From a virus, in UHGV virus genome UHGV-0078760: a stretch of DNA of 15,304 bases. One strand, given 5' to 3'. The notes below the pieces were generated by a model that was given only the letters and a program-made list of their open reading frames with translations, made no database searches and was not told the DNA's origin. Both the position numbers and the translations under genes were made by a program. Of this stretch, positions 5,867 to 14,756 are shown piece after piece; the stretch's first letter is position 1; every line of letters starts with the position of its first letter.

Positions 5867-6523
5867 TTATAAATCCATTATCACTTGTCTTACTAATCCG
5901 ACCAAACGGCAGTTGCCGTTTACCTCGAGCATCCTGTAGTTGGGATTGAGAGGTACAAGGTATTTAAGCGGACCATCAATGACGAATTTTTTTATAGTGG
6001 CTTCGTCACTTCCCATTAGCTGAGCAATGACAATTTTACCATTTGCTTGGCTGGCATCTCCAAAGTCAGGTTCTACGACGACGAGAGAGCCCTCCGGGAT
6101 GCTTGGTGCGCCATTTGGGTTAGTCATTGAGTCACCGCGGACTATTAGTGCAAAAGCGCTCTCTGAAACAGCTGCTGAAGTGTAAACCCAGTCTTGAATG
6201 TCTCGTTCCGTTATCGCACCGCTATTGGCAGTCCATTCCCCGGCTTGCACCCACGTTAAAACGGGAACTGATCTAATTCCGAATCTCTGCTCTGGGTTCA
6301 TTGTTGGCGGTTGTTGTTTCCCGTCATCCTTACCCTCCAGCAACCACTGCGGTGTCTTTTCAAGAGCAGCCGCAAGCGCCTGAAGGTTCTCACCGCCAGG
6401 TTTATAGTCACCAGATTCCCAGCCGGTGATCGTGACGCGGTTTACCCCGACAAGCTTTGCCAGGACGGATTGCGTCATCTTCAGCTCTTTTCGTCTGCTT
6501 CGGATTCGATCATTCATTTTCAT
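5867..6523 (-). CDS. cI: CI-like phage repressor (N-terminal HTH, C-terminal S24/LexA-like autopeptidase)
   Basis: N-terminal HTH segment (MTQSVLAKLVGVNRVTITGWESG); C-terminal S24 signature with GDSM serine motif and downstream lysine (..IVRGDSMTNP...KKF..). Start placed at ATG 6523 (alt 6517); the track's longer N-terminus would run into the operator region. Confidence 0.85.
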   Translation of the reverse strand: MKMNDRIRSRRKELKMTQSVLAKLVGVNRVTITGWESGDYKPGGENLQALAAALEKTPQWLLEGKDDGKQQPPTMNPEQRFGIRSVPVLTWVQAGEWTANSGAITERDIQDWVYTSAAVSESAFALIVRGDSMTNPNGAPSIPEGSLVVVEPDFGDASQANGKIVIAQLMGSDEATIKKFVIDGPLKYLVPLNPNYRMLEVNGNCRLVGLVRQVIMDL

Positions 6524-6588
6524 GTAGGCAATCCTACCATTTTCTAATGTAGGAGTGCTTGACCATTTTATGTAAGATATCCTACTAT
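6524..6588. promoter_or_regulatory. OR/PR region: rightward promoter PR with operator-like inverted repeats; candidate PRM on the opposite strand
   Basis: Plus strand: -35 TTGACC (6559-6564) - 18 nt - -10 TACTAT (6583-6588). Operator-like 14-mers GTAGGCAATCCTAC (6524-6537, abutting the cI ATG) and GTAAGATATCCTAC (6572-6585, over the -10). Weak minus-strand candidate: -35 TTACAT, -10 TACATT. Confidence 0.6.
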
Positions 6589-6622
6589 CTATGCACTGCA
6601 TGACCTAACTCCAGAGGGAAAA

Positions 6623-6820
6623 ATGAAAAAGAATGACGTTATCTCTTACTTCGGTGGCGTAGGGAAAACCGCCAAGGCGCTGAATATCTCCCACGCATCT
6701 GTATCGGGCTGGGATGAAGTTATCCCAAAGGGGAGGGCATTTGAGATCCAGGCGCTGACGAAAGGTGATTTGAAAGTTAACCAATCCCTTTATGAAAAGC
6801 GTAGTCATTCGGCTGCGTGA
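6623..6820 (+). CDS. cro: Cro-like small HTH regulator (YdaS-type Cro/C1 HTH)
   Basis: 65-aa ORF divergent from cI; GAGGG SD 5 nt upstream of ATG; HTH segment GGVGKTAKALNISHASVSGW; transcribed from the PR candidate. Confidence 0.8.
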   Translation: MKKNDVISYFGGVGKTAKALNISHASVSGWDEVIPKGRAFEIQALTKGDLKVNQSLYEKRSHSAA

Positions 6821-6848: not shown

Positions 6849-7415
6849 GTGGATAAACAACACTGGAAAGTAGAGCGACAACCAGCTTGGCTGGTGGCTG
6901 CAATCAAAAGAACGATCGCCGAAATGTCTGGTGGGTATGCCGAAGCAGCTGAATGGCTTGGTCTGTACCGCGCTGGAAAACTCTCAACGGATGCACTCTA
7001 TAACCGACTACGTAACGAAGGTGATCAAATTTTCCCGCTTGAGTGGGCGATGGTGCTTCAGGATGCGAGCGGTACTAAGTATGTCACCGATGCGATAGCC
7101 CGCCGTAGTGGTGGTGTATTCGTTCCGCTGGTGGAAGTAGATGATCTTGATAACGGCGATATCAACCAGCGTCTGATGGAGTCAATCGAATGGATTGGCA
7201 AACACTCGCAGTACCTGCGTAAGGCAACCGCCGACGGGGTTATTGATCCGGCAGAACGTGAGCAGATTGAAGAGAACAGTTATCAGGTAATGGCTAAGTG
7301 GCAGGAGCATTTGACGCTGCTATTCCGTGTTTTCTGCGCGCCAGAAAAGAATGACGCCCGCGAGTGTGCAGCTCCGGGCGCCTTGGCGAACAACTCTTCG
7401 AGTATGGAGAAATAA
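6849..7415 (+). CDS. YdaT-like protein in the CII position (putative lysis/lysogeny regulator)
   Basis: 188-aa ORF directly after cro; GTG start with AGGGGA SD 5 nt upstream. The YdaS/YdaT-type pairing is recalled from Rac-like prophages; homology not verified. Confidence 0.65.
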   Translation: MDKQHWKVERQPAWLVAAIKRTIAEMSGGYAEAAEWLGLYRAGKLSTDALYNRLRNEGDQIFPLEWAMVLQDASGTKYVTDAIARRSGGVFVPLVEVDDLDNGDINQRLMESIEWIGKHSQYLRKATADGVIDPAEREQIEENSYQVMAKWQEHLTLLFRVFCAPEKNDARECAAPGALANNSSSMEK

Positions 7416-7587
7416 TCCGCATGAGCAGTTTAACGGCTTTTAACCGTCTACCGCAACTCAGGATGATCCCGGTTTCGGGTACTCCGTTGTTTCGGTATGA
7501 ACGCAGATTATCAAACCGCTGGATTCCGTGTAACCACAGTAGGGCGGTTTCAATTGTGGGGGTCTACAACCGGAGGGCAAAACGCCA

Positions 7588-7767
7588 GTGCGCGAACTTA
7601 ACCGAAGGTTCAAAGACCACCGCGGAGTGTCTGTCCGTGTTATCCGCTGGGAACCAGAAACACAACGCGTTATCTACCTGCGTGATGGCTACCCGCACGA
7701 ATGCTTCAGCCCACTTGAGCATTTCAGGCAAAAGTTCAGGGAGATAACGGACGATCATGAGCACTAA
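7588..7767 (+). CDS. Possible small ORF, 59 aa (MRELNRRFKDHRGVSVRVIRWEPETQRVIYLRDGYPHECFSPLEHFRQKFREITDDHEH); GTG start
   Basis: Manual translation; protein-like composition in contrast to the S/R-rich 108-aa track ORF (7364..7747) in another frame. GGAGG 10 nt upstream of GTG; 3' end overlaps the initiator gene by 11 nt. Speculative. Confidence 0.25.
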   Translation: MRELNRRFKDHRGVSVRVIRWEPETQRVIYLRDGYPHECFSPLEHFRQKFREITDDHEH

Positions 7768-8614
7768 ATTAACCGGCTACGTATGGGATGGTTGCGCGGC
7801 GTCGGGCATGAAGTTGTCTAGTGTCGCGATCATGGCGCGCCTTGCTGATTTTAGCAGCGATGAGGGGGTGTGCTGGCCGTCTATTGAAACTATCGCTCGC
7901 CAGCTTGGCGCAGGGCCGAGCACTATCAGAACGGCAATCGCTAAGCTTGAAAAAGATGGCTGGCTCACGCGTACACAGCGCCGTAATGGTAACCGTAATG
8001 CTTCGAACGTTTACCGCCTGAATGTGGCGAAACTTCAGGCTGCCGCATTTTCTCAACTGTCAGATTCTGACACGTCAAAATCTGACGCATCAAATTTTGA
8101 CACCTCAAAAGCTGACCCGTCGAAATCTGGCAAAAATGGCGGTTTTGACCCGTCAGAATCTGGCGGGGATCCGTCAGTAAAATCAAAACAAGATCCACAA
8201 GTAACTTCAAAACCCTCTTGTCCGGTTGCGGCGCAACCAGACCCTGAAGTCGTGATTACTGATCAGGCAATTTTGGTTCTGACCCATTTGAACCAGATCA
8301 GCGGATCCCGGTATCAGAAATCAAAAACATCCCTGGAGAACATCCGTGCCCGACTGCGTGAGGGATACAGCGTTGCAGACCTGCAACTTGTTATCGACCT
8401 GAAGCATGAGCACTGGCACGAGAACGACGAGCAGTACCAGTACATGCGTCCGGAAACGCTGTTCGGCCCGAAGAAATTCGAGAGCTATCTGCAAAGCGCT
8501 ACCTGCTGGGAGCAGAAGGGACGGCCTAAACGGGCTGACTGGGGCGCGAAAAAGCGCGATGTGATGGCTTTTGGTCCGGTTGAAACAACGATTCCAGAGG
8601 GGTTCAGAGGATGA
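7757..8614 (+). CDS. Replication initiator protein (N-terminal winged-helix DNA-binding domain; C-terminal conserved phage replication domain); lambda O analogue
   Basis: 285 aa in the O position; low-complexity Ser/Asp/Lys-rich central linker encoded by DNA iterons; C-terminal segment (..ILVLTHLNQISGSRYQ...ETLFGPKKFESYL..) recalled as the Phg_2220_C-type domain of phage replication proteins. Confidence 0.8.
   Translation: MSTKLTGYVWDGCAASGMKLSSVAIMARLADFSSDEGVCWPSIETIARQLGAGPSTIRTAIAKLEKDGWLTRTQRRNGNRNASNVYRLNVAKLQAAAFSQLSDSDTSKSDASNFDTSKADPSKSGKNGGFDPSESGGDPSVKSKQDPQVTSKPSCPVAAQPDPEVVITDQAILVLTHLNQISGSRYQKSKTSLENIRARLREGYSVADLQLVIDLKHEHWHENDEQYQYMRPETLFGPKKFESYLQSATCWEQKGRPKRADWGAKKRDVMAFGPVETTIPEGFRG
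8066..8180. repeat. Candidate origin of replication: iterons of a 10-bp near-palindrome TGACnCnTCA at about 15-bp spacing inside the initiator gene, followed by an A-rich tract
   Basis: TGACACGTCA 8068-8077, TGACGCATCA 8083-8092, TGACACCTCA 8098-8107, TGACCCGTCG 8113-8122, TGACCCGTCA 8146-8155, plus degenerate copies; A-rich 8177-8215. Analogous to lambda ori inside gene O. Confidence 0.6.
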
Positions 8615-9930
8615 CGTTAAACAAATATTGCCAGGCGCTGGCGGCACTGCGCAGCAAACCAGCCCACGAACTGAAAGAGGTTGGCGATCAGTGGCGAACA
8701 CCGGATCTGCTTTTCTGGGGTATCAACGCGCTATTTGGTCCATTAGTTCTGGACTTGTTTGCTGACGACGACAACGCGAAGTGCCCGGCATGGTACACCG
8801 CCGAAGATAATGCACTGACACAGGACTGGTCTGAACGTCTGGCAGAACTGGGTGGTGCAGGTTATGGCAACCCACCGTATAGCCGTTCGCAGTACCACGA
8901 GAAACAGGCGATCACCGGCATGACGCACATCATGAACTACGCAGCAGCCCAGCGCGAAAAGGGCGGTCGCTATGTATTCCTGATAAAAGCTGCGCCGAGC
9001 GAAACGTGGTGGCCGGAAGATGCCGATCACATTGTATTCATCCGCGGGCGCATTGGGTTCGATCTGCCAGTGTGGTTTGTACCTGCTGACGAAAAACAAA
9101 AACCCACCAGCGCGTTTTTTGCCGGTGCCATAGCTGTATTCGATAAGTCATGGCGTGGCGAGCGTTTCAGCTATATCAACCGTACAGAACTGGAGGCAAA
9201 AGGGCGTGCGTTTATGGCTTTGGCACAATTTGCTGCCAGCAAACCTCAACCAGCAACGTCCACACCAACAGTAGCCGGTAAGCCAGAAACAGAGTTGCCA
9301 CTCACCCAGAAAGATATTTTTGATATCAGCGGTGTCGAAGCGTGGGCATGTGTTAGAGCTGCGTTCGGCGATAAAGAAGAATACACATTCAGTGAATCGA
9401 AGTTTGGGCATACCTGGGCGGCGGATTCTGTCGAAGCACCGGAATTCTCTCAGGTATCACCATTAACGATCGACAAAGCGAAGCTGCTTATTCGTGAGAG
9501 TATTTTGTTCGGTGTGGATGAGTGGCTGTTGTCGATTCAATTCGATGACGCTGCTGCGCGCCTGGATATGTCGGAACGTATTCGCACTGTTGCCCTTGAA
9601 GCATCCGGTGAATATGGCATGAACAGTGCTGATTTCATTGCAGCTATGGGAAGCCTGGATGTTTCCAGTTGGTCCAATATTCGCCACATCCGCATGCACA
9701 TCCGTGAGAAAGCTAAACCAGTGGCGGATCCGCTTCCCGAGTCCCGTATCTGGCCGTTGGAGGTTGGAATTGTATTCGACCAGGTTGATGGCGCTGACAT
9801 GCTGGATGAATCACAGCAGAACAAGCTGAAAGCCAATATCAATCAACTCTGGCTGGAGCGGACGGCCACCAGCGAAATCATTACTGCAGCTTCTGAACTT
9901 GTTCGCAGTATGAGGGGAGAGGCCGCGTGA
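8611..9930 (+). CDS. Phage Dam-like N6-adenine DNA methyltransferase (N-terminal about 190 aa with NPPY motif) fused to a C-terminal region of about 240 aa of unknown function
   Basis: ATG overlaps the initiator stop (ATGA). Translation shows WRTPDLLF...DLFADDDNA...GNPPYS, recalled as the phage Dam family pattern. The C-terminal half has no motif I recognise. Confidence 0.8.
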   Translation: MTLNKYCQALAALRSKPAHELKEVGDQWRTPDLLFWGINALFGPLVLDLFADDDNAKCPAWYTAEDNALTQDWSERLAELGGAGYGNPPYSRSQYHEKQAITGMTHIMNYAAAQREKGGRYVFLIKAAPSETWWPEDADHIVFIRGRIGFDLPVWFVPADEKQKPTSAFFAGAIAVFDKSWRGERFSYINRTELEAKGRAFMALAQFAASKPQPATSTPTVAGKPETELPLTQKDIFDISGVEAWACVRAAFGDKEEYTFSESKFGHTWAADSVEAPEFSQVSPLTIDKAKLLIRESILFGVDEWLLSIQFDDAAARLDMSERIRTVALEASGEYGMNSADFIAAMGSLDVSSWSNIRHIRMHIREKAKPVADPLPESRIWPLEVGIVFDQVDGADMLDESQQNKLKANINQLWLERTATSEIITAASELVRSMRGEAA

Positions 9931-12865: not shown

Positions 12866-13528
12866 ATGGATATAATTCATTTATTGGAAGTGCTTAATCC
12901 TCTTCAAAATGTAATAACTGTCAAAATTGATAATGACAAAGGGGGCTTTGCGACGTTCAGTGATTTCATAATTGCAGTCGCCCCTACAGTGATTGCTGGT
13001 TTTGCTATTTGGTTTTCTTATAGACAATTCAAAATTAGTCAGAGCAAACAAATTGAACAGTTTAACCATGGAATTAAGCAACAAATTAATGAGTTAAAAA
13101 TAAATACACAACTTGCTACTGAAGTGGAATTAATGAAAGATGAAAGCAAGGCCTTAAGAGAAGCTTTTGTCAGTTTTGTAGATGTCGCTTCATCGATTTA
13201 TAGCAGCAAGTCTGATTTTAAACAGTACGCTGAACGGTTAGGTGAAGATGCACTTAAGCATCAACAGTTATCCTGTCAAGCCATAATTGCTAACAGCAGT
13301 AAGTTCTTGCAAGCTAGATTGTTACTAATCTCTTATCTTAACCTTGATGATCCCGAAGAAAAAAACTTCTACGATTGCATTATTGCTATCGGCGATTGTG
13401 CATTTAATGGCGACGGAACAGGAGAGGATTTAGGGATATTGCAAGGTAAGGGCGCAAGTCTTTGCTTTAAATTAATAAAGAAGAAGCGCGATGCAATATT
13501 AAGCTTAGTAGATAACATCACCGACTAA
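12866..13528 (+). CDS. AT-rich moron: hypothetical protein with a single N-proximal transmembrane helix (FIIAVAPTVIAGFAIWF) and a largely helical soluble region; function unknown
   Basis: 220-aa ORF, ATG with AGGTGA SD 6 nt upstream; codon composition visibly more AT-rich than flanking genes; own extended -10 (TGgTATGAT, 12833-12841) just upstream; hairpin GCCTCTT/AAGAGGC (13543-13559) downstream. Confidence 0.7.
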   Translation: MDIIHLLEVLNPLQNVITVKIDNDKGGFATFSDFIIAVAPTVIAGFAIWFSYRQFKISQSKQIEQFNHGIKQQINELKINTQLATEVELMKDESKALREAFVSFVDVASSIYSSKSDFKQYAERLGEDALKHQQLSCQAIIANSSKFLQARLLLISYLNLDDPEEKNFYDCIIAIGDCAFNGDGTGEDLGILQGKGASLCFKLIKKKRDAILSLVDNITD

Positions 13529-13703: not shown

Positions 13704-14756
13704 ATGAAGAATACTGTAAAAATAAACAGTGTTGAGTTAATCAACGCTGATAGCCTGCATTACGTCGCCACCCTCCCGGATAACTCTATTGATCTGATAG
13801 TTACGGATCCGCCGTACTTCAAAGTGAAGCCCAACGGCTGGGACAACCAATGGAAGGGGGACGAGGACTACTTACGCTGGCTTGATAGCTGTCTGGCTGA
13901 GTATGCTCGCGTTCTTAAACCTGCTGGCAGCATCTACTTGTTTTGCGGTCACCGGCTGGCCTCAGACATAGAGATTATGATGCGTGCCCGGTTCAACGTT
14001 TTGAATCATATAATTTGGGCAAAACCATCTGGCCGCTGGAATGGCTGCAACAAAGAAAGCCTGCGTGCGTACTTTCCATCTACGGAACGGATTTTGTTTG
14101 CTGAGCACTATCTTGGGCCGTACACAGGTAAAGAGGACGTTTACGAAAGGAAAAGCACAGAACTAAAGCAGCACATTATGACGCCACTGATTGACTACTT
14201 CCGTAATGCCCGTGAATCACTGGGTGTCAGCTCGAAAGAAATAGCTGAGGCAACCGGAAAGAAAAACATGGCGTCACACTGGTTTGGTGCAAGCCAATGG
14301 CAACTACCAAATGAAGTGGACTATAGAAAATTGCAGGAACTGTTCACGCGGATCGCTATCGATAAGCACATTCAGCAGAAGCTTGAACATCCTCACCACC
14401 AGCTAGTGGCTACCTATCAGTCATTAAACCGCAAGTATTCAGAATTGCTGGAGGAATACAAAACCCTCCGGCGCTGCTTCTCTGTTTCCGCTCTTGTTCC
14501 GTATACCGACGTATGGACGCATAAGCCTGTTCAGTTTTATCCGGGCAAACATCCATGCGAAAACCCTGCCGATATGCTGAAACAGATCATTAGCGCCAGC
14601 AGCAGGCCGGGGGATATCGTTGCCGATTTCTTTATGGGCTCTGGTTCAACTGTGAAAGCAGCAATAGAACTTGGCCGTCGGGCGATCGGCGTAGAACTGG
14701 AAGCTGACAGATTTATTCAGACCACCGAAGAGGTGGAAAAACTGAGCAAAACATAA
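13704..14756 (+). CDS. Beta-class DNA methyltransferase (N6-adenine or N4-cytosine; DPPY motif IV preceding FxGxG motif I)
   Basis: Translation shows LIVTDPPYF near the N-terminus and FFMGSGST near the C-terminus (circularly permuted beta-class order) with a central variable region. No nuclease partner recognisable adjacent. Confidence 0.85.
   Translation: MKNTVKINSVELINADSLHYVATLPDNSIDLIVTDPPYFKVKPNGWDNQWKGDEDYLRWLDSCLAEYARVLKPAGSIYLFCGHRLASDIEIMMRARFNVLNHIIWAKPSGRWNGCNKESLRAYFPSTERILFAEHYLGPYTGKEDVYERKSTELKQHIMTPLIDYFRNARESLGVSSKEIAEATGKKNMASHWFGASQWQLPNEVDYRKLQELFTRIAIDKHIQQKLEHPHHQLVATYQSLNRKYSELLEEYKTLRRCFSVSALVPYTDVWTHKPVQFYPGKHPCENPADMLKQIISASSRPGDIVADFFMGSGSTVKAAIELGRRAIGVELEADRFIQTTEEVEKLSKT

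Follow-up and report, generated by a model that had tools for sequence, protein, structure and literature searches.

The virus genome UHGV-0078760, whose 15,304 nucleotides make up the window analysed here, is the early region of a lambdoid-type prophage, and this study concerns one gene within it (8611..9930, plus strand) that encodes a Dam-family adenine methyltransferase carrying a long C-terminal extension. The gene or close copies of it occur in prophages of Citrobacter, Salmonella and Escherichia coli, including the probiotic strain Nissle 1917; everywhere the copies are annotated simply as a phage adenine methyltransferase, and a third of the protein is an unnamed, constrained module. 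An earlier note on this DNA had described the extension as a domain of about 240 residues, possibly novel, standing in the slot of a helicase loader. We find instead a flexible linker, a rare module (M, with parts M1 and M2) and a common tail, and we weigh what these additions may do for the enzyme.

The fused Dam gene and its extension

The gene, taken from the list of open reading frames, begins with ATG and encodes 439 residues plus a stop, in the order Dam domain, linker, M1, M2 and tail. Its start codon overlaps the stop of the upstream 285-residue initiator gene by four nucleotides (ATGA), a Shine-Dalgarno sequence (GAGGGG) lies about 8 nt upstream of the ATG, and its own stop overlaps the GTG start of the RusA gene. 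The four-nucleotide overlap, kept in 68 of 69 loci of the same architecture among relatives in IMG/VR, suggests that the two genes are translationally coupled. The same architecture is encoded as a single open reading frame of 439-448 residues in 74 of 78 related IMG/VR loci (68 distinct gene sequences; protein identity 68-99%), which rules out two genes split by a frameshift or a sequencing error. The open reading frame of the earlier note is real, intact and conserved and, with a full Dam domain (residues 19-199) in 439 residues, is indeed a fusion about twice the usual length. A 439-residue copy in prophage 3 of E. coli Nissle 1917 (WP_001704140.1; 95% nucleotide identity) and an identical protein already at NCBI from Citrobacter braakii both bear the label 'phage N-6-adenine-methyltransferase', and the NCBI 90%-identity cluster that holds the latter has 337 members from Citrobacter, E. 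coli and Salmonella. Two members of that cluster (P0152 and P0157) are 161-residue 'PerC family transcriptional regulator' proteins without similarity to the methyltransferase and, judged by their sequences, are probably a clustering artefact; in many relatives, however, a PerC-like gene does separate the initiator from Dam or ParB.

The Dam-family catalytic domain (8611..9234, plus strand; residues 1-208) is recognised by PF05869, by TIGR01712 and by the PADLOC model MTase_II. For PF05869 the score is 146.6 bits, where the cutoff is 28.1 (E 7.5e-43), over residues 19-199 and profile positions 3-167 of 169; TIGR01712, the NCBIfam equivalog 'phage N-6-adenine-methyltransferase', matches residues 16-197 with 205 bits against a cutoff of 97. 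Because these family profiles are only 165-169 positions long, the catalytic core of a phage Dam amounts to about 170 residues. The Dam motifs DQWRTP (residues 26-31), LDLFAD (47-52) and NPPY (87-90) are in place, and the catalytic NPPY is kept in all full-length homologues of alignment A1. The pattern GNPPYS, which had been taken to end the Dam domain, is present at residues 86-91 but lies in mid-domain. The enzyme would accordingly be active and probably specific for GATC. GATC sites in the window number 75, against 55.5 +/- 7.3 expected, a count that decides nothing about activity or target.

No family in the Pfam and NCBIfam scans covers residues 200-375. Alignment resolves the extension into linker, M1, M2 and tail, and tblastn and protein-database matches cover different sub-ranges of it; an extension of about 240 residues is thus real, but it is a linker with two separable modules, M and the tail, and not one domain. 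Its novelty is likewise partial: M, of about 145 residues, belongs to no described family, whereas the last 65 residues or so are a known Dam tail. The peptide quoted in the earlier note, GVEAWACVRAAFGDKEEYTF, is found at about residues 244-263. The linker (9235..9294, plus strand; residues 209-228) is rich in proline, alanine, threonine and serine and flexible, with a predicted local distance difference test score (pLDDT) below 50, and among homologues it varies in sequence and in length, from about 20 to about 60 residues. M1 follows (9295..9483, plus strand; residues 229-291; alignments A2 and A4) with the core motif F[ST]ES[KR]xxHxWAxDS and a predicted fold of three helices and two short strands at a pLDDT of about 90; in three proteins (P0133, P0134 and P0139) it is joined to a different downstream set of M2-like helical repeats. 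M2 (9484..9726, plus strand; residues 292-372) is helical, again with a pLDDT of about 90; R99, N132, R134 and R137 (module numbering, alignment A2) are invariant, and the invariant R...N-I-R-x-x-R sits on its last, basic helix. An internal duplication, with residues 292-369 resembling part of the Dam domain as second high-scoring BLAST segments had hinted, was rejected when a half-against-half comparison gave E > 5.

The tail (9736..9927, plus strand; residues 376-439) is a three-helix module that reads ESRIWPLEVG...QQNKLKANINQLWLER... and matches phrog_111 positions 256-343, phrog_16025 and PADLOC PDLC03332 positions 228-297. As a whole, phrog_111 covers residues 3-438 (E 1.2e-102), about 134 of which are inserted with respect to the profile, and the MTase_II model PDLC03332 matches residues 4-219 and then the tail. 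A Dam domain with the conserved ESRIWPLEV...QQNKLKANINQLWLER tail is therefore contained in the protein, and as the same tail ends most 292-residue enterobacterial phage Dams, sequence comparison marks it as already known rather than novel. In the predicted structure (mean pLDDT 85.9) M and the tail fold as separate helical units, with a disordered hinge at residues 372-378 before the tail, whose pLDDT is about 88.

Selection acts unevenly along the protein. Against 29 homologues, each below 90% identity, the ratio of non-synonymous to synonymous substitution rates (dN/dS) is about 0.04 for Dam, 0.06 for M1, 0.12 for the tail, 0.22 for M2 and, at its highest, 0.28 for the linker, values that are qualitative only because dS is saturated. 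Constraint on M1 therefore comes close to that on the catalytic domain, and both M and the tail are under purifying selection. Residues 229-439 are acidic (isoelectric point, pI, 4.6; net charge -14), and homologous M sequences have net charges of -2 to -14 and pI values of 4.4-5.6.

Rarity and partners of module M

M is a rare, conserved module without a database name, in a gene that is itself already databased under a generic one. When residues 225-375 were run exhaustively by HMMER against 1.84 billion representative proteins, 21 reached E <= 1e-3, 12 of them E <= 1e-10. In those of the M-containing representatives that were put through Pfam, M comes with a Dam domain or with a ParB helix-turn-helix (HTH) domain. 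A second protein database, searched with an M profile, gave only 13, mostly fragmentary, proteins. Among 185,579 species, each represented by one genome, M was found at 33 loci, 31 of them labelled as Enterobacterales genera; for the other two, from a Geobacteraceae metagenome-assembled genome and a Chryseobacterium assembly, a wrong label or contamination may be the reason. IMG/VR adds 393 stretches that encode relatives of M and 296 with relatives of the ParB-M protein, not all of which include M; diversity is low in both sets. Nothing in Pfam, NCBIfam or PADLOC matches M, even with 13 members scanned at E <= 10, and in PHROGs M alone finds nothing beyond the insertion-tolerant phrog_111. 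By sequence, the PDB yields no match at E <= 1 with a single query and only noise (E >= 0.04) with the M profile; fold comparison gives no convincing structural neighbour, and the literature search found no family, name or publication dealing with M or with this extension of Dam.

The comparison of domain architectures among Dam homologues that had been proposed for this gene was carried out and gave four combinations. Dam with the tail alone (292-298 residues) occurs in Citrobacter and Salmonella and is represented by ST64B Sb44 and LLS gp45; Dam with M alone (397-408 residues) in Atlantibacter, Buttiauxella, Leclercia and others; Dam with M and tail (439-448 residues) in the gene studied here and its relatives; and a ParB-like protein with M (435-493 residues) in Pantoea and Erwinia prophages, including phage AH07 gp48. 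The 33 species-level loci comprise six Dam-M-tail, about 11 Dam-M and about 16 ParB-M. Because all four architectures exist, M is best seen as a cassette inserted between linkers and working with two unrelated DNA-acting enzymes. It travels with the enzyme rather than with the initiator, since a Dam-M gene lies among early-left genes beside the integrase at locus L171 and another lies downstream of a DpdA-like gene in Pantoea dispersa (L197).

Two rearranged forms deserve mention. A 91-residue protein (P0138) beside a 283-residue Dam was considered as a natural stand-alone M2 and rejected, being part of a Dam-M gene cut by an in-frame TAG. The stop falls inside M1 (AVFGDK-stop-EYTFKESKFAHVW; L167 5053-6276 and L168 4197-5420), which is why gene callers report a 283-residue Dam and a 91-residue 'M2'; the interrupted gene is part of an element that encodes a WYL regulator, and no initiator adjoins it. 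P0012 (405 residues) combines Dam and M1 with motifs from the C-terminal part of a C5 cytosine methyltransferase, probably through a deletion that fused a Dam-M gene to a downstream C5 methyltransferase cargo gene.

The initiator and the role of the modules

The replication initiator (7757..8614, plus strand; 285 residues) has Pfam matches to HTH_36 and Phg_2220_C, and its PHROG matches are named 'replication initiation', 'primosomal protein' and 'DnaD-like helicase loader'. Inside the gene lies an iteron-like array (8045..8162, without strand; repeat family D1, inverted repeats I1-I3 and I8) of six units at 15-bp spacing, partly palindromic (GTCAGAxTCTGAC-like) and coinciding with SDSDTSKSDASNFDTSK peptide repeats. 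By analogy with lambda, whose ori lies inside gene O, the array is a candidate for the phage origin. Just beyond it, between 8168 and 8307, stand two GATC-headed 22-nt repeats, with five GATC sites within 140 bp. Initiator genes of Dam-M phages hold on average 5.2 GATC (67 distinct sequences), three to five of them within 150 bp at about position 411, and those of ParB-M phages 2.5 (66 distinct sequences). The phage origin is thus a possible target of the phage's own Dam, which we treat as a lead only, because the initiator sequences counted are not independent of one another.

Gene order invites the thought that the extension replaces lambda P or DnaC, recruiting or loading host DnaB at the phage origin, and the premise on which the earlier note built it holds: no DnaC-, lambda-P- or helicase-type gene is present among the open reading frames scanned in the window. 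The assignment to the helicase-loader slot does not, as the C-terminal region lacks loader features and its modules are not constant beside this family of initiators. The 439-residue protein has no Walker A motif (GxxxxGK[ST]) anywhere; residues 225-375 have no Pfam match at E <= 1 and the tail gives only noise; the NCBIfam scan has nothing for residues 201-439; and the loader and helicase families (Phage_lambda_P, IstB/DnaC AAA+) match none of 13 M sequences at E <= 10. Neither M nor the tail proved similar to DnaD-like or Phg_2220_C domains, and hhalign, applied to the modules and the initiator domains, scored no pairing at a probability of 1% or more. In phages with the same initiator family the partner gene varies: the Pantoea-type loci L135, L162 and L165 have a plain ParB-like protein without M or tail, LLS and ST64B have Dam with the tail only, and Atlantibacter prophages have Dam with M only. 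M and the tail are thus dispensable in related replication modules, and a recognisable loader is missing from all of these relatives; some Dam-M genes, moreover, have no initiator nearby (L171, L197). Loading by the extension is accordingly very improbable. The initiator, with its DnaD-like domain and iteron-like array, is the better loader candidate, and the simplest reading is of a module that would replicate with the initiator alone of its own proteins and with host DnaB and DnaC. A tempting wrong inference is thereby removed, in that this lambdoid replication module hides no helicase loader in its Dam gene.

Our preferred explanation, held with middling confidence, is that M is a portable docking or oligomerisation module, and that the tail is another one, confined to Dam proteins. 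It rests on M being flanked by linkers, attached to two unrelated DNA-acting enzymes, acidic, helical and constrained, and free of any catalytic signature; the acidity of the region fits protein binding better than general DNA binding. A possible beta-clamp-binding motif (QKDIF) at the start of M1 was considered and dropped, its Q and F not being conserved and the segment being predicted to form part of the fold. The two modules might instead, singly or together, contact DNA near the target and so raise affinity, processivity or site preference. Both fusion partners, Dam and the ParB-like protein, act on DNA, the invariant R...NIRxxR lies on a basic terminal helix, the modelled helix-helix-strand-helix layout of M1 could be HTH-like, and such a role would resemble that of the C-terminal domain that helps CcrM to hold DNA. 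We nevertheless consider it rather unlikely: the modules are acidic overall, no DNA-binding family, HTH or otherwise, matches them at thresholds as loose as E <= 10, and both the long, variable, disordered linkers and the transfer between unrelated enzymes speak against an integrated recognition domain.

A role for M in anti-defence or host takeover, carried on an early protein and, for example, inhibiting or decoying a host defence or repair factor, has its attractions too. M is acidic, its distribution is narrow, patchy and cassette-like as that of counter-defence genes often is, and the adjacent slot is a hotspot for a DRT2 system, PDC-S39, a C5 methyltransferase and a DpdA-like gene. We judge it distinctly unlikely all the same, as no result supports it directly. 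M matches no known anti-defence family, no PADLOC model applies outside the methyltransferase part, and its charge density is far below that of DNA mimics such as Ocr and ArdA. It is always fused to a DNA-acting enzyme, and the short M-only reading frames that were inspected are remnants of fusions (the TAG-cut Dam-M gene; P0127, which starts with an apparent Dam end), except for P0134 with its unassigned N-terminus; moreover M1 is constrained like the catalytic domain and not fast-evolving. A bolder claim, and an unlikely one, is that M, perhaps with the tail, founds a new family of portable docking domains by which temperate phages of enterobacteria would couple early enzymes that modify or coat DNA (Dam, ParB-like or DpdB-like proteins) to a specific host or phage factor, for instance the replisome or the origin complex, with new phage DNA modified during its synthesis; or else that M is a new counter-defence effector.

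Under the docking or oligomerisation explanation, the gene would be expressed in the early-right operon, its translation probably coupled to that of the initiator, and its product would be a working member of the PF05869 'phage Dam' family, an orphan phage enzyme that makes m6A in DNA. Behind the flexible linker of this enzyme would stand two independent, non-catalytic, acidic, all-alpha accessory modules, the rare M and the common tail, which would hold the enzyme in place through a protein partner, through self-association or on a nucleoprotein structure, and which would take no part in catalysis, sequence recognition or helicase loading. Replication would rely on the initiator alone, through its own DnaD-like domain and iteron array together with host DnaB and DnaC. 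If docking is the true function, M would reveal a way in which phages bring DNA-modifying enzymes to the places that require them; if it is not, M becomes one more domain of unknown function.

Neighbouring genes and known systems

On the minus strand, genes for an integrase, an exonuclease and a DUF2303 protein come first in the gene order, with a cI-like repressor at 5867-6601; Cro (6623-6820) and a CII-like gene (6849-7415) follow. A 127-residue phrog_1170 protein (7364-7747, plus strand) of unassigned function lies just upstream of the initiator; its reading frame overlaps that of the CII-like gene, and it is kept in almost all Dam-M loci. Beyond the Dam gene come the RusA Holliday-junction resolvase (PF05866; 9927..10313, plus strand), whose start provides the overlap with the Dam stop, and then, in order, an Ant/KilAC antirepressor, DUF968/HNH and Q. 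Between Q and a second methyltransferase lies a 220-residue open reading frame (12866-13528, plus strand) for which PHROGs and PADLOC give no match and Pfam none that is credible; in the Nissle prophage the corresponding position is taken by a Clp-fold serine protease of the SDH family. The second DNA methyltransferase (13704-14756, plus strand; 350 residues; PF01555 N6_N4_Mtase), downstream of Q and before the holin, means that the prophage encodes two orphan methyltransferases, an arrangement shared by the Nissle prophage.

Across relatives, the slot between the Dam or ParB-like gene and RusA, HNH and Q is a variable cargo site (L135 7732-9018 and 9101-10069; L091 7590-9413; L005 5725-7662; L162 3582-4652), and about half of the Dam-M loci have an insert of about 1.9 kb there. 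Its cargo includes a DRT2 reverse transcriptase (PADLOC E 4e-201) beside an 8xMP membrane protein, the candidate defence gene PDC-S39 (DUF7380 with DUF4209), a 645-residue C5 cytosine methyltransferase and a Ser/Thr-kinase-like gene. A gene resembling DpdA, matched by phrog_887 ('queuine tRNA-ribosyltransferase', E 8e-97) but by nothing in Pfam or NCBIfam, follows ParB-M at L001 (4504-5259, AH07 gp49), L086, L088, L096, L153, L154, L156, L157 and L195, and precedes Dam-M in Pantoea dispersa (L197, 2302-3150). This arrangement hints at an occasional DpdB-like role of the ParB-like protein in modifying DNA with 7-deazaguanine. As a defining trait the link was rejected, because no more than about 7 of 80 loci have the DpdA-like gene after ParB-M, which makes the association occasional. 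The DGQHR match is marginal (E 0.013).

Among known systems, the closest are the enterobacterial phage Dam enzymes of 292-297 residues that carry the tail alone (Salmonella phage ST64B Sb44, Escherichia phage LLS gp45; phrog_111, PDLC03332). They share the same Dam (76-94% identity over residues 1-243), the same tail (about 75-82% identity, with 73% given by a comparison with the end of ST64B Sb44) and the same position, after an HTH_36/Phg_2220_C initiator and before RusA or Ant, but lack the roughly 145-residue M that the studied protein has between linker and tail. With the PF05869/TIGR01712 family at large, the protein shares the catalytic class, a full-length profile match and NPPY, and adds 230 residues. 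We take M.EcoVT2Dam, of prophage VT2-Sa, to belong to this family. That enzyme is reported to target GATC (PMC6602927). Hia5, a non-specific methyltransferase, was considered as a PF05869 member and struck from the comparison as wrongly placed, since the relatives that its paper gives for the family are DpnM and the Dam enzymes of E. coli and T4.

The ParB-like-M fusions of Pantoea and Erwinia, among them AH07 gp48 ('chromosome partitioning protein'), have the same M1 and M2 (36-44% identity, with all core motifs), a similar acidic linker and usually the same slot after the same initiator family. They differ in an N-terminus that is ParB/HTH_ParB and not a methyltransferase, in the lack of a tail, and, in some cases, in adjoining a DpdA-like gene. 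With the loaders lambda P and DnaC the likeness is confined to where the gene lies, immediately after the initiator gene and in overlap with it, and extends to no sequence, motif or convincing fold of M or the tail. CcrM is an orphan adenine methyltransferase of the PF01555 class with a non-catalytic C-terminal extension that is needed for its work on DNA; this extension is basic and binds DNA. The parallel with CcrM is one of analogy only, for it belongs to a different class of methyltransferase and its extension is basic, whereas M and the tail are acidic.

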